From Thermodesulfobacteriota bacterium (GTDB lineage: Bacteria > Desulfobacterota > Desulfarculia > JACQYL01): 64,000 nucleotides of DNA. The DNA is taken from assembly GCA_963675595.2 (NCBI GenBank), contig CAXXLZ010000002.1:96001-160000 (forward strand), given 5' to 3'. Below the pieces are notes generated by a model, which was not told the DNA's origin, did not search any database, and saw nothing but the letters and a program-made list of their open reading frames with translations. The position numbers were made by a program, and so were the translations under genes. Of this stretch, positions 20,848-34,820 are shown one piece after another. Positions within the stretch are counted from its first letter, which is position 1; the number at the start of each line of letters is the position of its first letter.

Positions 20848-21492
20848 TTGAGCAAAGAAGCATTGATTGAGAAGGCCAAACAGGTGGTCATCGAAGGCGA
20901 CGAAGACGGCGCCGTGGAATTGGCCAACAAGGTGATCGAAGAGGGCGTCAACCCCGTCGAAATCATCAACGAAGGGTTGACGCCGGGAATGACGACCATC
21001 GGCGACATGTTCGGGAATGAGGAAATTCCTCTACCCGGCGTGTTGGTCGCCGCGGAAGCGATGACCAAGGCCATCGAAATCCTGGAGCCTCACATTCCCA
21101 AGGACAGCTCTTCCAAGAAGATCGGTACGGTGGTCATTGGAACCATCGAAGGGGACATCCACGACATCGGTAAACGGATCGTGGCCACGATGATGCGCGT
21201 GTACGGCTTCGACGTGCACGACCTCGGCCGAGACGTACCCATCGGCGACTTCGTGAACACGGCCAAAGAAGTCGGGGCGGATATCGTGGGGTCTTCCACT
21301 CTGATGACCACCACCATGGCCGGTCAGAAGACTCTGGAGGAAGAGCTGAACAAAGCGGGGATCCGGGACAAGGTCAAGACCATGATCGGTGGAGCGGCGA
21401 CGACTCAGGAATGGGCCAACAAAATCGGCGCGGACTGTTACGCCGAAGACTCCACGGACGCCGTGAGAAAGGCCAAAGAGCTCATTAGTTAA
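20848..21492 (+). CDS. mttC: Trimethylamine corrinoid protein
   Basis: B12-binding EGDIHDIGK motif; TTG start with AAGGAGG; directly before mttB. Confidence 0.85.
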   Translation: MSKEALIEKAKQVVIEGDEDGAVELANKVIEEGVNPVEIINEGLTPGMTTIGDMFGNEEIPLPGVLVAAEAMTKAIEILEPHIPKDSSSKKIGTVVIGTIEGDIHDIGKRIVATMMRVYGFDVHDLGRDVPIGDFVNTAKEVGADIVGSSTLMTTTMAGQKTLEEELNKAGIRDKVKTMIGGAATTQEWANKIGADCYAEDSTDAVRKAKELIS

Positions 21493-21563: not shown

Positions 21564-23027
21564 ATGATTCGAGGACTGAAAGCCGGAGTCATGAATCTGG
21601 AAGGCTTCGGTTTGAACATGTTCAGTCGTGATCAATTAGATGAACTCCACTATGCAACCCTCGACGTCCTTCAGAACTACGGCGTCCAGGTGTATTGCGA
21701 CGAAGCCCTGGATATTTTCGACGGAGCCGGGGCCTTTGTCGACCGAAAGACCAATCAGGTGCGCATCCCCGCCAATTTGGTGGAAGATGCCATTATATCG
21801 GCACCCAGTACGATTCTGCTGGCGGGACGTACGCCGGAATACGACGTCACCATCCAGCCTCGTCGACTCGGTTTTACCTGTTTCGGCGCGGGCGTCATGG
21901 TTGTGGACCCCTTCAACGGCGAATTCCGGGAGTCCAACAAGACCGACGTGGGTCACACGGCATTGGCTTGCGACGCCATGGATAACGTGGACATTTATTC
22001 CAGCGCCGTGGTGGCCAGGGATATTTCGGGCCCCGCCACCGACCTTCACGAAGCGGAAGCGTTTCTAAGCAACACCATGAAACACTGTCAGCACATCGAT
22101 TTGACGGGCGGCCCGGGAGCCAAGAAGTTCTTTGAAATGGCCGCGGCCGTCGTCGGTGGGCTGGACAAGCTGCGGGAGCGGCCCTTGGTATCCGCTCTGG
22201 TTTGCCCTACGAGCCCCCTGCAGCTCCACACCCATACCGCCGAGATCATCATTGAGTGCGCACGGTACGGGGTGCCCGTGAACGTTCTTTCCATGGCCAT
22301 GTCGGGAGCCTCTTCCCCGGTCACTCTGGCGGGAACCCTGGTGACGCACAACGCGGAAGTGCTCAGCGGCATCGTGTTGCACCAGCTCACCGCCAAGGGA
22401 GCGCCGGTCATTTACGGCAGCTCGACCACGACCTTCGACATGAATTACACCACCGCTCCCGTTGGTTCGCCTGAATTGGGAATGATCAGCGCCGGCGTGG
22501 TGGAACTGGCTCGTTACTACATGCTTCCGAGCTACGTCGCGGGAACATAGGCTGACAGCAAACTGTCCGACGCTCAGGCCGGGCATGAAAAGACCATCAC
22601 CTCTTTGCTTCCGGCGTTGGCGGGCGCCAACTTGATCTACGGGATGGGAATGCTGGAGTTAGGAGTGACTTTCAGCTTCGCTCAACTCCTGATCGATAAC
22701 GAAATCGCCGGGATGGTCAAAAGAGTGGTCCAGGGCATTCATATATCGGACGCGACCCTCGGGGTCGAGCTGATCAAAAAGGTCGGAGCCGGGAAGGACT
22801 TTCTCGCTGAAAAACACACCAGAGAGTGGATGGGATGCGAGCAGTCCAAGGTGAAGTTGATCGACCGCAGAATGCGAGGAAACTGGACGCGAAGAGGGGC
22901 CAAGGATCTGGGGCAGGCCGCCACGGAAAAGGCCAGGGAGCTTCTGGAAACCCATAAGGTGCCGGCGCTTCCGGACAACGTGCTGTCCACGTTTAGATCC
23001 ATCATTGAGGACGTTGAGAACGAATAA
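21564..23027 (+). CDS. mttB: Pyrrolysine-containing trimethylamine:corrinoid methyltransferase (487 aa, Pyl329)
   Basis: ORFs 21564-22550 and 22605-23027 are in one frame separated only by TAG 22548-22550; read-through YVAGT-O-ADSKLSDAQAGHEKT matches the MttB Pyl site. Confidence 0.95.
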
Positions 23028-25116: not shown

Positions 25117-25764
25117 ATGGATAAGAAAGAATGGTTCGAGAAAGCGGCCAAGACCGTGCTTGACGCGGATCAGGAAGCAGCCGTTAAGGTGGCTGAGGAG
25201 GCCGTTGCAGCCGGTATCAACCCCTTGGAAATGCTTAACCAGGGTTTTTCGGAAGGGATCATGCGTATTGGTGATCTTTTCGACCGAGGAGAAGTTTTTC
25301 TCCCCGAACTGATCATCGCTTCCGAAGCAATGGTCGCCGCCGTCAAGGTGCTGGAAGCGGCGTTGCCCGCTGAAGAACACAAGGAGAAGCTGGGCAAAGT
25401 CGTCATCGGAAGCATCGAAGGAGACGTTCACGACATCGGCAAAGGAATCATGGTCACCATGCTTCGCGTGTACGGGTTCGAGGTCTACGATCTCGGAAGA
25501 GACGTTCCCATCAAGTCCTTCGTTGACAAGGCGAAGGAGGTGGACGCGGACTTTGTGGGTTCTTCGGCCTTGATGACCACCACACAGGTGGGCCAGAAAG
25601 CGCTCGAGGCAGCACTGAGTGAAGCGGGACTCCGCGACAAGGTAAAAACCATGGTGGGCGGTGCTGTGGCTACCCAGCACTGGGCCAACAAAATCGGCGC
25701 CGATCTTTACGCCGAAACCGCGACGGAAGCCGTTATGAAGCTCAAGGAGCTTGCAGGCGGCTGA
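25117..25764 (+). CDS. mtbC: Dimethylamine corrinoid protein
   Basis: EGDVHDIGK motif; RBS GGAGGTG; directly before mtbB. Confidence 0.85.
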
Positions 25765-25780
25765 GAAGGGAGGTGAGTCC

Positions 25781-27181
25781 ATGAAGAAATACCTCACCCG
25801 TCGGGGTGACGGAGTCCGCATCGAGATGACGGATGACGAACTCAGAGCCGACTTTGAGTCGGGCATCCAGGATGCGGCGGAAAGAGGGAAGATCGACCCC
25901 CTTTCCAACGAGGACCTCGACCGGCTGATGGACATTTTCACTGATCCCAATCGAATCGTCGGTGTGGAACCCGGGAACGAAGTTCCCTTGACCCACGATA
26001 TCGGTACGCTTCGTTTGATGGGCGATCAGGGAAACAGCGGCGTGGGAATACCGCTGAGCAGGGTCCACGGGATCCAGGTGCATGAACGGGCTTTCTGTTC
26101 CGACTCCATGGAGCTTGGACACATTGATTACAGCTTCAAGCCCATTAAACCCGTGATCGCCATGGAACAGCAGGAGTACGAGAATGCACAAATGTGCACG
26201 ATCATTCCTCTGTTGTACGGCGCCATGCCCAATCTGGGCCTTTATTACGCCCCGGACGGCCCCTTCGGGAACCCGTCCGATCTCTTGCCCGCGGGCAAAG
26301 TCAAAGAGGCGCTGGAAGCCCAGGAACAAGCGGTGGAACACGCCACCAAAGACATGATCTATATCTCCGAGAAGCTCGCAAATGTGGGCTGCGACGGGAT
26401 CAACTTCGACACCACCGGAGCCGCGGGCGACACGGATTTCGCCGCCACGCTCAAGGCGGTGGAACATCTGAAAAAGACCACCAACCTGGCCGTCCAGGTG
26501 GGCATGGCGGGCGAGTTCGTTCTGGGAATGCACGGCAGCCTCAAGTACAACGGAACCAGGCTGGCCGGGCTCTATCCCCACAAGCAACTCGAATTGGTGG
26601 AACAAGCGGGGGCGGACATCTTCGGACCCGTGGTAAACACCAAGCCGAGCAAGTCCATGGCTTGGAATCTGGCCCGGGCGGTTACCTTCGTCAAGGCGTG
26701 TACGGCCGTCGCCAAGATTCCCATCCATGTGAATATGGGAATGGGCGTGGGCGGCTCCCCCGTTTTCGAGACTCCGCCCATCGACAGCGTGACCCGCGCA
26801 TCCAAGGCCATGGTGGAAATCGGCCGCGCGGACGGGTTGTAGATAGGCGTGGGGGACCCCCTTGGGATGCCGATAGCTCACGGCATGGCAGCAGGCATGG
26901 GCGGAATCAGGACGGCCGGAGATCTGGTGGTCCGAATGCAACTGAGCCGCAAGATGCGGATTCAGGAAGCGAAAGCCTATGTGGCCGACAAGCTGAAAGT
27001 ATCCCCGGTAGACCTGTCGGACGAGAACGTGATGAGAGAAGTCCGCGAGGAGCTGGACATCGGAGTCATCACTTCGGTCCCGGGTTGTGCCAAAGGAATG
27101 GAAGCGAAAGCGAAAATCGCCGACTTGCTCGGCATTGAAATCAACAGTGTCAGCCGTTTCAAACGGAAGCTCGGTCTATAG
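25781..27181 (+). CDS. mtbB: Pyrrolysine-containing dimethylamine:corrinoid methyltransferase (466 aa, Pyl354)
   Basis: [11 protein letters not shown] start with GGAGGTG; in-frame TAG 26840-26842 in [15 protein letters not shown]; GIRTAGDLV motif downstream; ends at TAG 27179-27181. Confidence 0.95.
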
Positions 27182-27191
27182 ACCGGAACAA

Positions 27192-27215
27192 GCGGGCTTC
27201 CCTCGGGAAGCCCGC
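27192..27215 (+). terminator. Strong hairpin after mtbB (terminator or transcript-stabilising)
   Basis: GCGGGCTTCC-CTCG-GGAAGCCCGC followed by a short CCTTT. Confidence 0.55.
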
Positions 27216-27275
27216 CCTTTCAGGCGCCCGCTGGAGAGCACCAGACTCCCGGACGCCAATACAAGGAATCATTTG

Positions 27276-27866
27276 GTGAGCCGAAAAAACACACCCGACC
27301 TTCAGTCAGCGTTCCATTCCGCCGACCCCTCTTTGGAAGAAGCGTTCGAAGCGGTCTCCCGGGAGCACGGCGTTCGCGTGTATCCTCTTGAATTGGAGAG
27401 CATCAAGCCTTCGTACAGCATCCGTCTCAAGTGTCAGGTGCCCTTGTGCGAATATTACGGTGTGTCCAAAGTATGCCCGCCGAACATCCCGGATGTCCCC
27501 GAATTCCGTGAAGCGATGAAGGATTATCGGATGGCGTTTCTGGTGGTGTACACGGAACGCATCGACAACATTCAGCACTATCGAAAGGACTTCACCGCGG
27601 AGCGAAAGCTCGCCGACGCGGTCTCCGCCTTGGAGGCGGCGGCTTATCGGCACGGTTGGTATCGGGCGTTGGGACTGTGCGTGGGGGGTTGCAAGCTGTG
27701 CCCAAGCTGTGCGGGGGCCGACGAGCCATGTCGGCATCCCTTTAAGGCCCGCCCCAGTCCGGAAGGGTTCGGCATCGACGTAACCGAACTCGCCCGCAAT
27801 CTGGGAGTGGCGGTCGAATGGCCTCCCCGCGACCAAGTCAACTTCTTGGGCCTTCTGTTCCTCTGA
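27276..27866 (+). CDS. DUF2284-type Cys-rich putative metal-binding protein
   Basis: RLKCQVPLCEYYG..CPP, GCKLCPSC...CRHPFKARPSPEGFGIDV; start at TTG/GTG 27273/27276 after AAGGA. Confidence 0.82.
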   Translation: MSRKNTPDLQSAFHSADPSLEEAFEAVSREHGVRVYPLELESIKPSYSIRLKCQVPLCEYYGVSKVCPPNIPDVPEFREAMKDYRMAFLVVYTERIDNIQHYRKDFTAERKLADAVSALEAAAYRHGWYRALGLCVGGCKLCPSCAGADEPCRHPFKARPSPEGFGIDVTELARNLGVAVEWPPRDQVNFLGLLFL

Positions 27867-27968
27867 TTCGCGACCAGGCACGGTATGAAACCGCCGTTTC
27901 TTTTTCTTCTTCAGGAATCATCGTCTCGAGAATCATGATCGAGGCGAGATGGAGTTTGAGGATATATA

Positions 27969-28937
27969 ATGTTCAGCATGCTCAGCTGTTATGATCGGGT
28001 CCGCAAGGAAGTCGTCGGCAGGGAAGTGGAAGCCAAATCCATTCTCGTGGCCATGGATGCGGGAAAACACATACTTCTCGAAGGACCTCCGGGAACCTCC
28101 AAGTCCACTCTTTTAAGAATCATCGCGAAGGAAAGCGGCATCCCCTTGTATATCATCGAAGGCAACATCGATCTGACCCCGGCCAAGCTCGTGGGGCATT
28201 TCAATCCCTCCAAGGTGATGTCCGACAGCTATCAGCCCGAATATTTCGAAAAGGGTCCCCTGACGAACGCCATGGAAGTAGGAGGGATACTGTACATCGA
28301 GGAATTTAACCGGATGCCCGCCGACGTAGCCAATGTACTCATCTCCCCCATGGAAGAAGGCGAAATGACCATTCCCAGGTACGGCAAGATCAAGGCCGTA
28401 CGCCCCTTCACCGTGATCGCGGCCCAGAACCCTTACGATGATGTGGGCACCGTGAGGGTGAGCAGGGCCTTTATGGATCGGATTTGCCTGATCCGCATGA
28501 CGTATCAGAGTGAAGAAGAAGAGATGGAGATCGTACGGAAAAGATCCACGTCCGAGGATCTCGAAGCGATCGCTTTGGCGGTGGCCATGGCGAGAAAGAC
28601 CAGGGAGCACGAGGACATCAAGCTGGGAGCGTCCGTGCGTGCCGCCATCGATCTGGCGGACATCTATTGGGGACTGCAGAAACTGGCCCGGGACCCGGTC
28701 CGGAACTTCCTCATCGCCGCAAGAATGGCCATGTCCAATAAAATATGGCTCAATGAGATGGCCGCCGACACGGCGGATACGATCATTGAACAGATTTTCG
28801 CCTCCCTGCGCAGCAAATACGGCCGCTTTTTGTACAGGAAGGAAGGCGACGAGGCCGGCGACGGCGTGGAGACGTCGGGCCAAGAATCCCTCGAAGCGGA
28901 CTTGGATATCGAAGAAAAAAAAAAGATCGCTATGTAG
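27969..28937 (+). CDS. MoxR-family AAA+ ATPase (short, 0-frame product)
   Basis: LLEGPPGTSKS Walker A, LYIEEFNR Walker B, AAQNP, AFMDR; acidic tail. Confidence 0.9.
   Translation: MFSMLSCYDRVRKEVVGREVEAKSILVAMDAGKHILLEGPPGTSKSTLLRIIAKESGIPLYIIEGNIDLTPAKLVGHFNPSKVMSDSYQPEYFEKGPLTNAMEVGGILYIEEFNRMPADVANVLISPMEEGEMTIPRYGKIKAVRPFTVIAAQNPYDDVGTVRVSRAFMDRICLIRMTYQSEEEEMEIVRKRSTSEDLEAIALAVAMARKTREHEDIKLGASVRAAIDLADIYWGLQKLARDPVRNFLIAARMAMSNKIWLNEMAADTADTIIEQIFASLRSKYGRFLYRKEGDEAGDGVETSGQESLEADLDIEEKKKIAM
28915..28925 (+). other. A10G slippery site, candidate -1 frameshift / transcriptional slippage
   Basis: GAA GAA AAA AAA AAG puts A_AAA_AAG in the correct phase; -1 frame is open and continuous with the vWA ORF. 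Confidence 0.7.
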
Positions 28938-28960
28938 GGGATAAGTTCCTCGATCGGATT

Positions 28961-29791
28961 ATGACGGGGTCGTCCTATTATTACCGGGTGGCCACGCACC
29001 TGAACAACAACCCGGACGATCTGGTCCCTTTTTTTGAGAAGCAGGACTCCCTGGAAGTATTCGCCAACATTCTGGGGATGCTGAAAAAGGACGTGAGGGA
29101 GATGGCGGCCCAGATCGCCGGCCGCATCATCATCAAGATCGCCAAACAAATCGCGGACACGGGGACGCGTTCCGGCAAGCTCAAGTTGGTCAGAGGGTGG
29201 GTGGACGGCGCGGAACTTGAGCTCGATCTGAGCCTTGAACAATACACCGAAGCGCCCGAGTTGGGCATCGTGGAAAACCTGGTTTCCTATATCAGAAAGC
29301 GGGAGAAGGAAGCCTTCATCATGTTCCTGGACCACAGCTACTCCATGAAGGGGCTCAAGATCGTTTTAGCGGCCATCACCGCGGCTTCCATCGCTCAGCA
29401 CTTCAAGCGGGACTATGCCATCATGGCGTTCAGCAATTCGGTCACCATGCTCAAAGCCATCGACGAATCCACCGGACCCGAGGAGATTCTGCAAAGGCTC
29501 TTCGCTCTGGAACTTTATGGCGACACGGATTTTCAGCGGGCGTTGGAGGCCGGCCTTTACCACCTGAGAAACTTCGACCGGAAGAGAGGGCTGATTCTAA
29601 CGGACGGAGCCTGGAACCAGGGTGGAGATCCACTGGACGCGGCCGCTCGTTTCGACAAGCTCAGCGCCATAGGCTTTCCCCCGTCCAAACACGAAAAAAT
29701 CAGGATTCTGGCGCTCAAAGGCAAAGGGGAATGCGCCTTCGTGGAAAACCAGCATGAGATATCTCGAGCCATCATCCGTTGCCTGAACTGA
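28961..29791 (+). CDS. von Willebrand A domain protein (probably C-terminal part of an AAA-vWA fusion 27969-29791)
   Basis: MIDAS DHSYSM, GDTD, ILTDG; weak RBS; frame open upstream through the poly-A site (KKKDRYVGDKFLDRIMTG). Confidence 0.88.
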   Translation: MTGSSYYYRVATHLNNNPDDLVPFFEKQDSLEVFANILGMLKKDVREMAAQIAGRIIIKIAKQIADTGTRSGKLKLVRGWVDGAELELDLSLEQYTEAPELGIVENLVSYIRKREKEAFIMFLDHSYSMKGLKIVLAAITAASIAQHFKRDYAIMAFSNSVTMLKAIDESTGPEEILQRLFALELYGDTDFQRALEAGLYHLRNFDRKRGLILTDGAWNQGGDPLDAAARFDKLSAIGFPPSKHEKIRILALKGKGECAFVENQHEISRAIIRCLN

Positions 29792-29846
29792 CTCCACGAC
29801 GGAACGCGAATCCATCATGACCGAAAGCGTAAGAACGAAATCCAAA

Positions 29847-29918
29847 GGAGGGTTGATCGGCAAGATCATGAAGACTCTAAATCTTCACAGCCGGGTTGAA
29901 CTCCCGGACCCTCCTCCA
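29847..29918 (+). tRNA. pylT: tRNA-Pyl (anticodon CUA)
   Basis: Acceptor GGAGGGT/ACCCTCC, 1-nt linker, D arm GATC-GGCAA-GATC, 6-bp anticodon stem TGAAGA/TCTTCA with loop CTCTAAA, 3-nt variable CAG, T arm CCGGG-TTGAACT-CCCGG, T73, CCA; directly before pylSn. Confidence 0.96.
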
Positions 29919-29961
29919 ATTTTCGTATCCGTTTGCCGACGGTGCATGAAGGCGTAGACTT

Positions 29962-30288
29962 ATGGGCATGCCTCAACGAAAAGCACCAGCGGCGACGAAG
30001 AAGGCGAAGAAGACTTTCTTTCGCAAAAGAGAAGACTTGGGAATGGTGCTTCAAAAGGTGAAGCTCTGGCCTTCGCGGAACGGGACCCTGCATGGAGTGC
30101 GCACCATCGTGGTGAAGGGAGCTTTCATTGATTTCACCACCCATTGCGGCCAGAAGCTACGCATCAAGAATTCGAAGAGCAGCAGGGTGTCCCGGTGGCT
30201 CAGGAACAAGTGGTACGTCAGACCTTGTTCCGGGTGTCGGGTCCCTACATGGAAACTTGAGAAATACTCCCAAACGTCTTTTCGATAA
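29962..30288 (+). CDS. pylSn: Pyrrolysyl-tRNA synthetase N-terminal subunit
   Basis: KLWPSRNGTLHG...THCG...NSKSSRVSRWLRNKW...CSGCRVPTWKLEKY signature. Confidence 0.95.
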   Translation: MGMPQRKAPAATKKAKKTFFRKREDLGMVLQKVKLWPSRNGTLHGVRTIVVKGAFIDFTTHCGQKLRIKNSKSSRVSRWLRNKWYVRPCSGCRVPTWKLEKYSQTSFR

Positions 30289-30343
30289 CCGACGAGTTCG
30301 ATCCTTCGCCGATCGATCTCCACGATGGAAGGTGAAAGTGCCC

Positions 30344-31516
30344 ATGACCGGACGAGACAATCGTCTCACAGCTGTTTTGGACGGAGTGCTGCAAGGAGGC
30401 GCCCTATCCCGCCGAGACGCGGAAACCCTGCTTTCCGCTTCAGACCCTCAGGATGTGGACAGAATTACCCAAGCGGCCCGGATCATGAGGGCGCGGCTTT
30501 TCGCCGACTCCGTTTTTCTTTACGGTTTCGTCTATTTTTCGACCTATTGCAGGAATTCCTGTACGTTTTGTTTCTACCGCAGGGGCAACAAGCAAAGCCC
30601 CAGGTACCGAAAGACCGAAACGGAGGTCAAGGACATCGCCCTCGGACTTGCCGCGTCCGGGGTTCATCTGGTGGATTTGACCATGGGTGAGGACCCATGG
30701 ATCTACGAGCGGCAGGATTACGGCGTACTCTACCGGATAGTGGGAGGCATCCGAGACGCCACGTCGGTTCCCCTCATGATTTCGCCCGGAGCCGTGCCCG
30801 ACGAGGTGCTCCGGACCTTGGCGGCTCAAGGTGTGGACTGGCTGGCCCTGTACCAGGAAACCCACAACCGAAGTCTATACGGGAAGCTCAGAGTCGGACA
30901 GAGTTACGACGAACGGGTGGAAAAGCGGAATCTGGGCGCACGGCTGGGAATGCTCGTGGAAGACGGGATTCTGCTGGGCGTGGGAGAATCCGTGCGGGAC
31001 CGGGCGGATTCCATCATGAACATGCGCTCCGGCGGATCGGACCAGGTCCGCGTCATGAGCTTTGTTCCGCAACCGGATACCCCCCTCGCCGATCGACAAA
31101 CGCCTCCCAGGCGACTCGAGCGCCTTTGCATCGCGGTCATGCGCCTCGCCATGCCGGATCGGCTGATCCCGGCTTCTCTGGACGTGGACGGCATCAACGG
31201 GCTGCGGATGCGTCTCGAAGCGGGAGCCAACGTGGTCACTTCCATCATACCGCCCCGAAGTCGCCTCGCGGGAGTTTCCCAGAGCAGTTTGGATATAGAG
31301 CCCGGTCACAGAACCGTGGCGGAGGTACGGAAGATTCTCGACGATATGGGCATGAAAGCGGCTTCCTTGTCTGAGTATGAATCATGGATGAAACAAAGAA
31401 AGCTGTTGAAAACCGGCCGGTCGGAACAAATCCAAATCGGTCTTTCCGCACTTCCCGACACGCACGCCGGCGACGTACCGAGCCATCCCCTCGGTCTGCA
31501 TCACACATATCCTTGA
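30344..31516 (+). CDS. pylB: 3-methylornithine synthase (radical SAM)
   Basis: FLYGFVYFSTYCRNSCTFC, DLTMGEDP, IPASLDVDG, AGANVVTSIIP; start ATG 30344. Confidence 0.93.
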   Translation: MTGRDNRLTAVLDGVLQGGALSRRDAETLLSASDPQDVDRITQAARIMRARLFADSVFLYGFVYFSTYCRNSCTFCFYRRGNKQSPRYRKTETEVKDIALGLAASGVHLVDLTMGEDPWIYERQDYGVLYRIVGGIRDATSVPLMISPGAVPDEVLRTLAAQGVDWLALYQETHNRSLYGKLRVGQSYDERVEKRNLGARLGMLVEDGILLGVGESVRDRADSIMNMRSGGSDQVRVMSFVPQPDTPLADRQTPPRRLERLCIAVMRLAMPDRLIPASLDVDGINGLRMRLEAGANVVTSIIPPRSRLAGVSQSSLDIEPGHRTVAEVRKILDDMGMKAASLSEYESWMKQRKLLKTGRSEQIQIGLSALPDTHAGDVPSHPLGLHHTYP

Positions 31517-31653: not shown

Positions 31654-32655
31654 ATGACAGCCAAAGAACGAGTCATGGCCGTCCTGAACCACGAGAAACC
31701 GGATCAAATGCCCGTTTTTGGGGCAAATTCCACGGTCACCTATGATCAAATGGAAAAGGTATCCGCTTTCTGGCCTAAAGGTCACGAGGACGGCGAGACC
31801 ATGGCCAAGCAGGCCATGGCCGCTTACACCATGCTGGGATTCGATGCGGTCCGGGTCCCTTTCTGCCAGACCTTCGAAGCGGAAGCTTTGGGATGCAAAG
31901 TCAAGTCGGGCGGCGACAAGGGTATTCCCGGCATTGATCATCCCCCGCCGTACAAGCTCGAGGACACCCCGGCCTTCCCCTCGGACTTCCTTTCCAGAGG
32001 GCGGATTCCCGAGTTGCTCAAGGCCGTCCGAATCCTGAAGAAGGAACTCGGCGACGACGTGCCTATTGTCGGCGGGATCATCGGGCCTTTTACCATCACC
32101 GGGTCCCTCATCGACACGGTTCCTTTGTTGAAGGCCACCTTCAAGACACCGGAAAAGATCCGCCCGTTCATGGAAGTGGCGGAAAAAGCGGGCACCGAAC
32201 TGGCAAAAGCTCTTATCGACGCGGGAGCGGACATCATCGCGGTCGAGGATATGACCGCCTCTCCGGAGCTCATCGCTCCCCAGACCTACGGAGATTACGA
32301 GGTCGAATACCAGAGCAGACAGTTCAAGGCCATCTCAGTGCCCAAGATTCTCCACATCTGTGGAAACGTGGACAAGATCGTGCACTGGATGGGCGAGACC
32401 GGTCCGGATGTCCTCAGCCTCGAGCCTAAGGCAAGTGCCAAACTCGCCCGGGAAAAATGTGGACCGGATATGATTCTCATGGGAGGAGTGGACACGGCCA
32501 CCACGCTGTTCATGGAATCGCCCGAGACGGTGAAAAAAGGGTGCGAAGCCTCCATCGCCGACGGAATCCAGATATTGGCTCCCGGATGCGCCGTGGCTCC
32601 GGGAACGCCCCTTGATAACCTGTTGGCCATGGTGGAAGTGGCTCGGAGCCGTTAA
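31654..32655 (+). CDS. mtbA: MtaA/MtbA/CmuA-family methylcobamide:thiol methyltransferase (UroD fold)
   Basis: GFDAVRVPFCQTFEAEALG, Zn motif LHICG and APGC. Confidence 0.85.
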   Translation: MTAKERVMAVLNHEKPDQMPVFGANSTVTYDQMEKVSAFWPKGHEDGETMAKQAMAAYTMLGFDAVRVPFCQTFEAEALGCKVKSGGDKGIPGIDHPPPYKLEDTPAFPSDFLSRGRIPELLKAVRILKKELGDDVPIVGGIIGPFTITGSLIDTVPLLKATFKTPEKIRPFMEVAEKAGTELAKALIDAGADIIAVEDMTASPELIAPQTYGDYEVEYQSRQFKAISVPKILHICGNVDKIVHWMGETGPDVLSLEPKASAKLAREKCGPDMILMGGVDTATTLFMESPETVKKGCEASIADGIQILAPGCAVAPGTPLDNLLAMVEVARSR

Positions 32656-32898: not shown

Positions 32899-33143
32899 TT
32901 TAAGCAACTCACCATGAAGAACGGATCGGACCCGGGGGAAGCCCTCTCACTTTTCACCACTCGAAAGAAGGGCATTCCTCGGGCGTGATGAATCCGGCAG
33001 TTCATCGAAAATGTCGGATTCTTGCAGGCGGACCCGACCGTCGCACCCATCCGGATGCACCGGGTTCGCCTCTTTTCTTGCGTTTTGTCGCGGAACACCC
33101 TTGCCGAAATGCACTTTCCACCCGTTTCCCATAGGAAGTGATC

Positions 33144-34820
33144 ATGACCCGCATCGGTATTGCGATAGACCTGGGAACCAGCGGCTTCAGAGGACAGGCC
33201 CTGGATTTGGACCGGACCGGCCGTGTGCTCTCCACGGCGGTAACCGCGAGACATCCCCTGCCCGGAGCCAACGTGATGGATCATCTTCATTGCGCTCTCG
33301 AACTTGGAGTCGAGTGGGCGCAACAGGTGATTGTTTTCTCCGTCAACCGAATAGTCGCCGCTCTCGGCATCGATCCCCAACACGTGGTTCGCTTGGCCGT
33401 GTGCGGGAACCCGATCCAGTTGTCGATCTTTCAAGGGATCGAAATCCGAGACCTGGCCTACGCGGGTAAACGAAAACTCGAGGCATTGGGCGTGGTTCCA
33501 CCGGATCGCGACGCCCGGAAGATCAAGGCACGGGAAATCCCGGGGCTGGCGCTTCCGGGTGAGGCGGAGGTGCTCATTCCTCCGGCGGTCCGACACGAGA
33601 TAGGCGCCGACGCTCTAGCCATGATGATTCGGACGGGCATGCTGGAGAAAGACGAAATCGCCATCGCCACGGATTACGGCACGAACGCCGAAATGGCCCT
33701 CGTGGTGAACGGCACGGTCTACACCGGTTCCACCGCCGCCGGGCCGGCCCTGGAAGGCCAACAGATCGAAGATGGATTGCTGGCCCTGCCCGGAGCGATC
33801 TGCGAGGCCTCCTATCTGCGCGGTAACGCAGCTCCAGGCACCCAAGACGACTGCGGTCGCTTCGGAGTCCGGGTTCTGGACGAAGAGATGACGGCTCGCA
33901 CGGGGAGTACGGTCGATCCCTGTTCGGGAGAAACCCTGGAGCGCGGAGACGTGTCGGCCGTGGGCATAACCGGCACCGGGGTCGTTGCGCTCATCAGTGA
34001 GGGCATCAAGAGCGGACTCATCCAACCTCCGAAAATCAAGACCCCCGACGCCGCGATCCATCTGGCGGACGGAGTGAAGTTCTCGGAGAAGGACCTTTTG
34101 GAGGCCGGAAAAGCCATCGGTTCCGTCCGCGCCGGCCATTTCACACTCTGTCAAGAGGCGGGCATCAACCTCGAAGATGTTGAGGCGGCCTACATGTCGG
34201 GAGCCTCCGGTACGTATGTCAATGCCCTCAAAGCCCAACATCTGGGCATGATCCCTCCTGCCGTGAAGAAGATATATCAGGTGGGCAACACCTCCCTGGC
34301 CATGGCCCGAGAGCTGGTCTTGGATGCGGATGCCCTCTGGAAGATGAAGGAGGTCGCCGACGCCCTCAGACAACACCACTGCATGTTCGCCGTTTCCAAG
34401 ACGTTCGAGAAGGTCTATGTGCTTGAATTGTCCGTTTGGTCCGACGGTCTGACCATTGAGCAATACCGGATGTTCCTCAAGAAGTACAAACTCCCCACCC
34501 TTCCGGAAATCTCCGGCTCGGCCGAGGTCGTGAAAACGGAGGAGAAAGATATCGCCGAAGTGGGGGAATTGGGCCTGACAATCCTTACCGACGCGGGCAT
34601 GAAAAGGACTCTCGTATTCAGTGGCTGTGCCGGGGATTCTCTCTGTGTGGCGGAATGTCCGGAAAATGCACTCCGCATCCACGAAGCGGGAGAGGAGTTC
34701 GCCGTCACCATCGATCTCGCCCTCTGCAACGGTATGGCTTGCCGGAGATGCGAAACGATCTGCAACGAGCGGGCCTTTGACTGGGTGCGTCTGATCACCA
34801 TCGGAACCGGCTCTGCGTAA
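33144..34820 (+). CDS. ramA: Methylamine methyltransferase corrinoid reductive activase
   Basis: AIDLGTSGFR, RHPLPGANVMDHL, TDYGTNAEM, GSTAAGPALEG (ASKHA) plus C-terminal ferredoxin-like domain. Confidence 0.93.
   Translation: MTRIGIAIDLGTSGFRGQALDLDRTGRVLSTAVTARHPLPGANVMDHLHCALELGVEWAQQVIVFSVNRIVAALGIDPQHVVRLAVCGNPIQLSIFQGIEIRDLAYAGKRKLEALGVVPPDRDARKIKAREIPGLALPGEAEVLIPPAVRHEIGADALAMMIRTGMLEKDEIAIATDYGTNAEMALVVNGTVYTGSTAAGPALEGQQIEDGLLALPGAICEASYLRGNAAPGTQDDCGRFGVRVLDEEMTARTGSTVDPCSGETLERGDVSAVGITGTGVVALISEGIKSGLIQPPKIKTPDAAIHLADGVKFSEKDLLEAGKAIGSVRAGHFTLCQEAGINLEDVEAAYMSGASGTYVNALKAQHLGMIPPAVKKIYQVGNTSLAMARELVLDADALWKMKEVADALRQHHCMFAVSKTFEKVYVLELSVWSDGLTIEQYRMFLKKYKLPTLPEISGSAEVVKTEEKDIAEVGELGLTILTDAGMKRTLVFSGCAGDSLCVAECPENALRIHEAGEEFAVTIDLALCNGMACRRCETICNERAFDWVRLITIGTGSA

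Follow-up and report, generated by a model that had tools for sequence, protein, structure and literature searches.

A pyrrolysine tRNA with discriminator U73 in a Desulfarculia genome belongs to a U8/U73 clade and was probably acquired with its Pyl module

To our knowledge, older reviews called the G73 discriminator of tRNA-Pyl universal. The 64,000-nt stretch of DNA analysed here (the window) encodes a tRNA-Pyl in which this base reads as U. Is the base real, does the tRNA serve a working pyrrolysine system, and how would a pyrrolysyl-tRNA synthetase (PylRS) come to accept it?

ARAGORN called two tRNA genes within the 64 kb window, one of them a tRNA-Pyl with anticodon cta at 29847-29918 on the + strand. 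The parts of this gene on which the argument turns are as follows.

29847..29918, + strand: pylT, the tRNA-Pyl gene, anticodon CUA (ARAGORN, cloverleaf fold, covariation, and 72/72 identity with the gene at locus L153)
29854..29854, + strand: the single linker base U8 (sequence; found together with U73 in 11/11 members of the clade described below)
29915..29915, + strand: the discriminator U73, T in the DNA (CCA register, contigs of 4 runs from 2 studies, 11/11 clade members)
29916-29918, + strand: CCA encoded at the 3' end of pylT (sequence)

The acceptor stem has 7 bp (29847-53 with 29908-14) and opens with the pair G1:C72 (G29847 with C29914), which is GC in 106/106 tRNA-Pyl sequences. The D stem (GATC/GATC) closes a 5-nt loop, GGCAA; the anticodon stem has 6 bp (29869-74 with 29882-87) and carries the loop CTCTAAA, with CTA at 29877-79; the variable loop is CAG (3 nt); and the T loop, TTGAACT, is without TTC. 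The earlier note on this DNA had recognized the hallmarks of tRNA-Pyl from the letters, and all are present: the CUA anticodon, the 6-bp anticodon stem, the 3-nt variable loop, the one-base linker, the small D loop and the missing T-psi-C. The exception is G73. With T at 29915 the gene instead falls into the subtype termed pylTU, defined by U at position 73 in bacterial pylT.

The predicted cloverleaf is stable and is preserved by evolution. The 72 nt fold with a minimum free energy of -30.5 kcal/mol (z = -3.66), and only 1 of 200 shuffled sequences folded as well. Across 106 distinct tRNA-Pyl sequences, 99.3% of cells were paired and 12 of 22 pairs had changed on both sides, with the D stem and three T-stem pairs uninformative in this test as they were fixed by the search pattern; the covariation score was reached by none of 500 shuffles. 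On the other hand, no Rfam model scored pylT at its gathering threshold, and the miss of the general tRNA model RF00005, which stayed below its gathering score, counts against the gene call. A scan of 29500-30500 for promoters and terminators returned no sites and is not informative.

The register of the 3' end follows from the genome's own usage. An encoded CCA ends 50 of its 51 tRNA genes, which makes 29915 position 73 and bears out the earlier assignment of its T as the discriminator. We also considered an 8-bp acceptor stem, in which A29846 would pair with T29915 and leave C as the discriminator. This was rejected because the base at -1 varies from relative to relative (a, t, c, t, c, c in six clade members).

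One possibility is that the unusual base is an assembly error. In Logan contigs of runs X1, X3 and X4 (study P1) and X5 (study P2), 29915 is T and never another letter, although X1 may be the source sample and is then not independent for this base. The earlier note had made its reading hinge on the absence of G here, and none appeared in the contigs of the 4 runs and 2 studies. The pylT gene and its U73 are real, neither a sequencing error nor a private mutation. Run X1 also contains short contigs with near-identical tRNA-Pyl genes in other flanks, one of them at a depth of about 5 and with two differences over 29847-29915 (including T>C at 29885), which points to a second organism in the X1 sample that has this type of tRNA.

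To ask what this tRNA would serve, we turned to the genes around it and elsewhere in the genome.

20848..21492, + strand: corrinoid protein upstream of mttB (Pfam B12-binding, B12-binding_2)
21564..23027, + strand: mttB, trimethylamine methyltransferase, with an in-frame TAG at 22548-22550 (Pfam MTTB, Rfam PYLIS_3)
25117..25764, + strand: corrinoid protein upstream of mtbB (Pfam B12-binding, B12-binding_2)
25751..27181, + strand: mtbB, dimethylamine methyltransferase, with an in-frame TAG at 26840-26842 (Pfam Dimeth_Pyl, Rfam PYLIS_2)
29962..30288, + strand: pylSn, small subunit (N-terminal domain) of the split pyrrolysyl-tRNA synthetase (TIGR03912, 109.9 bits against a cut-off of 51.15)
30344..31516, + strand: pylB, methylornithine synthase, a radical SAM enzyme (TIGR03910, 449.4 bits against a cut-off of 348.2)
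31654..32655, + strand: MtaA/MtbA-type methylcobamide methyltransferase (NF004889, 328.9 bits against a cut-off of 244; Pfam URO-D)
33138..34820, + strand: RACo/RamA-type reductive activase of corrinoid proteins (Pfam RACo_C_ter, Raco_middle)
G000:C2:161682-162401 (locus L004 5679-6566), - strand: pylSc (TIGR02367, 297.6 bits against a cut-off of 178.15)
C1:129884-131847, on another contig: pylC and pylD, one each

The pylSn gene starts 43 nt downstream of pylT, and pylB follows 55 nt after pylSn (its start at 30344 is our reading of the ORF and its translation), with no pylSc between the two. The TAG-containing methyltransferase genes lie a short distance upstream of pylT, so that it has the linkage to pyl genes and their targets that is looked for in a tRNA-Pyl gene. 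Genes for a DUF2284 metal-binding protein, a MoxR-type AAA ATPase and a VWA-domain protein occupy 27087-29791, between mtbB and pylT. When mttB is read through its TAG, the Pfam MTTB match spans residues 17-481 of 487 with one TAG inside it, and the Rfam element PYLIS_3 (80.1 bits) begins on that TAG. The corresponding match of Dimeth_Pyl to mtbB (749.9 bits) covers residues 13-472 of 477, again with one TAG inside, and PYLIS_2 matches at the gene with 80.6 bits.

The missing synthetase gene, pylSc, lies 1.7 kb past the window end and 36 kb from pylT (C2:125847-125918), between a thioredoxin-like and a protein-kinase-like ORF, labels that were read from the translations with no family search. 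The synthetase is split, with separate PylSn and PylSc that each score above their curated cut-offs, and its two genes are not adjacent in one cluster. The genome is 98% complete and has 51 tRNA genes, among them one tRNA-Pyl, and one PylSc above the family cut-off. Its Pyl-type methyltransferase genes are exactly two, mttB and mtbB, both in the window and with one TAG each; mtmB was not found in this 98% complete genome. With a single pylT, a single pylSc and two such target genes, the U73 tRNA would be the only route to full-length MttB and MtbB. A tRNA-Sec gene is present at G000:C1:971408-971505 (- strand), so the genome appears to encode both selenocysteine and pyrrolysine.

It could be speculated that this genome has given up decoding UAG as pyrrolysine and that pylT is a relic in decay. 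The pyl genes do lie in three separate places, which could suggest decay, and the missing score from the Rfam tRNA model points the same way. However, the five pyl proteins are all above curated cut-offs and have no internal stops, the homology of mttB and mtbB is full-length past the single TAG of each, and the T at 29915 recurs both in the contigs of 4 runs from 2 studies and at ten other loci. We consider a relic, like an assembly error, very improbable. The Pyl system is evidently complete in its gene content, and its use is predicted.

The ten other loci came from searches for relatives of the tRNA. A structural pattern scan of a species-genome collection found at least 120 loci, and all of the 121 matches listed had 7/7 acceptor pairs. 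Of these listed matches, 114 had G as the discriminator, 5 had U and 2 had A, frequencies that describe a sample drawn from at least 120 loci. The D stem and some of the T stem were prescribed by the scan pattern. Among the five U73 genes in the matches listed, three were near copies of the window tRNA: all three have U8, the same D loop (GGCAA) and a T loop beginning with TT. They carry the labels Firmicutes bacterium UBA2595 (L047), Peptococcaceae bacterium CROMO_A_245 (L117) and Firmicutes bacterium HGW-Firmicutes-14 (L131). Scanning metagenomes with the D-loop pattern of this group gave only two loci, both of which were added to it, and a search of HGW-Firmicutes-14 and 60 relatives gave five more. 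In that last set, eight genomes had a tRNA-Pyl, seven with U8/U73 and one with G8/G73.

The resulting group, clade I, consists of the window and L047, L117, L131, L151, L152, L153, L155, L156, L157 and L158. U8 and U73 occur together in 11/11 of these loci, which are not 11 independent events, as kin share labels. The anticodon stem varies within the clade by paired changes (GAAGA/TCTTC, GGAGA/TCTCC, CGCAGA/TCTGCG). At L153 (1493-1564, + strand; G077:C53) the tRNA-Pyl is identical to that of the window in 72/72 positions, and the adjoining PylSc and PylSn are 64% and 68% identical to the window proteins. As far as the DNA reaches, the gene order is pylT-pylSn-pylSc-pylB in 10/10 of the other clade I loci. 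The fixation of U8 together with U73 across one clade of 11 loci is new here.

Other discriminator states were also seen. A second, unrelated U73 group, clade II, comprises L062 and L080 (each 1993-2062, + strand), with the labels Desulfobacterales and Deltaproteobacteria; its tRNAs have C8 or G8, its gene order is pylT-pylSc-pylB, and its PylSc has K150 and D151. Bacterial tRNA-Pyl genes with A73 are found at L033 (1993-2063, + strand) and L058 (1991-2061, - strand), whose MAGs bear the labels Candidatus Aminicenantes and Desulfobacterales HyVt-363; the motif-2 loop of the PylSc next to L033 is of full length. Paired copies of pylT, all with G73, occur at L085 (1991-2059 and 2526-2594, - strand, 535 nt apart) and at L043/L044 (about 2.5 kb apart).

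The relatives of the window's own host present a different picture. When its genome and 60 relatives were searched by BLAST, the tRNA-Pyl genes of class relatives had G8 and G73 in 7/7 cases; since L011 and L093 are one and the same contig stretch, these relatives include a Candidatus Adiutrix MAG. Two genomes of the same family (95% and 99% complete) were searched by tRNA BLAST and gave no match. The window PylSc is 60-65% identical to core clade I PylSc and 40-48% to PylSc of its own class. PylSn is 67-78% identical to that of nine core clade I loci and 48% to that of L145, and PylB is 42-60% identical to clade I where comparable. In a tree of 57 PylSc rows the window sequence is sister to eight clade I sequences (SH-aLRT 93), while the class relatives are placed elsewhere. 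A tree that forced it together with five class relatives, a group named by kinship labels though after the first tree had been seen, was rejected (delta lnL 295.6, p-AU 3.1e-41). This grouping of the window PylSc with the U8/U73 clade and not with class relatives is also new here.

These data suggest that the Pyl module was probably acquired horizontally. We infer the direction of transfer only from the class relatives, and the donor is unsampled: the window sequence is sister to the other clade I sequences, not nested within them. The other clade I loci keep pylSc between pylSn and pylB, which implies that the window pylSc has left that place.

How, then, would the enzyme read U73? G73 is a documented identity element, as the earlier note had stated: in Desulfitobacterium hafniense the change G73U costs 30-fold in kcat/Km, and G8U costs 4.6-fold (Herring 2007, PMC1851642). 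The same note proposed altered motif-2 recognition in the cognate PylSc and pointed to this gene as the place to look. The gene was found, outside the window, and its motif 2 turned out to be unremarkable. The motif-2 stretch, R170-F182 (RKESKGSRHLSEF), has 13 residues, the length found in 12/12 U73-linked and 44/44 G73-linked enzymes among all PylSc that could be paired with a tRNA. Every residue of the window loop also occurs in the 44 G73 enzymes (K174 in 8, S176 in 10, R177 in 9 and S180 in 4), and comparison of the 12 U73-linked with the 44 G73-linked PylSc found neither a motif-2 indel nor a U73-specific residue. The proposal of altered motif-2 recognition is not supported by these counts.

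The idea behind it nevertheless deserves weighing. In the archaeon HMET1 (Candidatus Methanohalarchaeum thermophilum) the PylRS2/tRNA-Pyl2 pair with A73 depends on a one-residue deletion in motif 2 (Zhang et al. 2022, PMC9071458), and a remodelled loop might likewise let the window PylSc read U73. The loop adjoins N73, and its length decides the use of A73 in HMET1 (PMC9071458). K174 and S180 are present in 9/9 core clade I enzymes, and the commonest residues at these positions in G73 enzymes are Q (17/44) and N (18/44). Against this, with 13 residues the window loop is not shortened and has no counterpart of the HMET1 deletion, K174 and S180 are not exclusive to U73 enzymes, and clade II (L143, L144) has S174 and G180, so that no motif-2 residue is common to all U73 enzymes. 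We regard a remodelled motif-2 loop as quite improbable.

Differences between the core of clade I and the G73 enzymes were instead found outside the loop.

PylSc residue 150: G in 9/9 core clade I; no G in the 44 G73 enzymes (R 21, K 10)
PylSc residue 151: H or R in 9/9 core clade I; D in 28 of the 44 G73 enzymes
PylSc residue 135: T or S in 9/9 core clade I; R or K in 33 of the 44 G73 enzymes
PylSc residue 253: N or D in 9/9 core clade I; G in 36 of the 44 G73 enzymes
PylSc residue 286: I or M in 9/9 core clade I; S or T in 31 of the 44 G73 enzymes

G150 of the window PylSc aligns with Arg140 of the D. hafniense enzyme. According to a review, Arg140, Arg144 and Glu145 of that enzyme contact G8 (PMC7609411); in chain 3dsq_A, index positions 140 and 144 are Arg and position 145 is Leu, so the Glu145 of the review is not matched. 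We considered G150 as a simple partner of U8 and rejected this as a rule: L145, a member of the U8/U73 clade, has R at this position, and so do 7 of 8 archaeal U8/G73 pairs. It follows that U73 does not require G150 and that G150 does not go with U8 alone; the residue may mark shared descent only. The lineage appears to have changed two known identity positions (8 and 73) together with one or more residues in contact with one of these positions, which is a lead, not proof. Of 4706 homologues of the window PylSc, the best 120 include 88 with G at position 150, which indicates that the enzyme type is common in metagenomes. Gly150-type PylSc among these best 120 come from MAGs labelled with several phyla, and the homologues also include a Thermoleophilia-labelled PylSc (55% identity).

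Another possibility is that position 73 is not read at all. PylSc, held on the tRNA by PylSn, would ignore the base; U73 would have drifted in, and the pair would not be orthogonal to G73 systems. The 30-fold effect of G73U in D. hafniense is only moderate, lies mostly in kcat and was measured without PylSn (PMC1851642). No motif-2 change accompanies U73, and the discriminator states on the tree require a minimum of three changes, two to U and one to A; in the bacterial PylSc lineages there were thus two or more origins of U73 and one or more of A73. An unread base would, however, be expected to vary. U73 is invariant in 11/11 clade tRNAs while the neighboring proteins diverge to about 60% identity and other positions of the same tRNAs change, by compensatory changes. 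Neutral tolerance of this kind is thus unlikely in our view.

The reading that we favor, with a probability of roughly 80%, is that pylT encodes the single functional pyrrolysine tRNA of this genome, that its U73 is a fixed trait of the lineage, that the module was acquired horizontally and that U73 is accepted via residues outside motif 2. By the established pathway, PylB from the window together with PylC and PylD from contig C1 would make pyrrolysine, and the split synthetase, PylSn from beside pylT and PylSc from 36 kb away, would charge the tRNA with it. The charged tRNA would then read one in-frame UAG each in mttB and mtbB, a few kb upstream. U73 would be a fixed trait of a distinct bacterial Pyl-module lineage, in which a U8 and U73 tRNA travels with its own PylSn, PylSc and PylB. 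The host class, otherwise G8/G73, would have gained this module from a lineage seen mostly in Bacillota-labelled genomes, and pylSc would have moved out of the cluster after acquisition. Acceptance of U73 would require no shortened motif-2 loop, and the clade-specific substitutions outside the loop are the candidate determinants.

A wider generalization is possible, if rather doubtful: U8/U73 tRNAs and Gly150-type PylSc, in pylSn-first clusters, might form a large unrecognised bacterial class whose identity set has shifted at positions 8 and 73 and is read outside the motif-2 loop. In such a class recognition would fall to position 135, the C-terminal tail and the helix that follows LAPNLY. 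If this is true, its pairs would be naturally orthogonal to G73 PylRS by a mechanism unlike the archaeal A73 case, and they would also move between phyla as complete modules. Genetic code expansion relies mainly on PylRS/tRNA-Pyl pairs, and there is demand for pairs that are naturally orthogonal. The present case adds a U8-linked U73 clade with co-travelling synthetase genes and a synthetase without a motif-2 indel, and so offers a concrete pair and concrete residues. It also appears to record the passage of a Pyl module into another bacterial class, followed by a rearrangement in which every part was kept.

The suspicion in the earlier note that non-G73 variants might already be catalogued was well founded. 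Guo et al. (2022, PMC9630628) described U73 tRNA-Pyl ("pylTU") in three bacteria, a Phycisphaeraceae bacterium, Guaymas Basin Sediment 11 and Halarsenatibacter silvermanii, with no biochemistry in the passages on these genes; a 2023 review repeats the report (PMC9976931). The tRNA-Pyl family has thus been known to include U73 and A73 members since that study, whose account of A73 names only two archaea (PMC9630628), and a 2024 review, in its treatment of discriminators, gives the A73 case only. In the literature after Guo et al. we found neither RNA data nor a charging assay for a U73 pair. In the part of that paper that deals with it, the change in H. silvermanii is treated as an isolated event and U8 is unmentioned (PMC9630628). 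That U73 tRNA-Pyl exists was therefore already known; added here are the U8/U73 linkage, the clade, the transfer, which is probable, and the displaced pylSc.

Where that study had three U73 bacteria, we find U8/U73 in 11 loci, and the host class of the window, which also holds Candidatus Adiutrix, differs from those of the three species. The PylSc of H. silvermanii and of the Phycisphaeraceae bacterium (Guo supplement) have a full-length motif-2 stretch, like the window PylSc. Judged by eye, with no tool alignment, the H. silvermanii enzyme has G then R after LAPNLYSLL, W-N-I, DSWAG and SLIY, which are marks of clade I, so that the published case and clade I may be parts of one broad group. 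The motif-2 strings of the PylSc from the window and from UBA2595 and HGW-Firmicutes-14 are absent from the two spreadsheets of that study.

The A73 pair of HMET1 resembles the window system in that a natural non-G discriminator is inherited with its own synthetase. It differs in the base itself, in its archaeal enzyme, which is without PylSn whereas PylSn is present in the window, and in having two pairs in one cell as opposed to the single pair of the window genome.

The D. hafniense system (PylSc and PylSn; PDB 2zni and 3dsq) shares with the window the split synthetase and the compact tRNA architecture, and the window PylSc aligns with its PylSc over residues 24-295 (273 bits). Its tRNA has G8 and G73 where the window has U8 and U73, its PylSc has Arg140 where the window has Gly, and the window cluster is unlike it in having pylSn first and pylSc displaced. 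The tRNA-Pyl of Methanosarcina (L027, L034 and other rows) is like that of the window in its U8, which a review also gives for M. barkeri (PMC7609411), its 5-nt D loop and its T loop starting with TT; in contrast to the window, it has G73, is served by a fused PylRS and belongs to an archaeal host.
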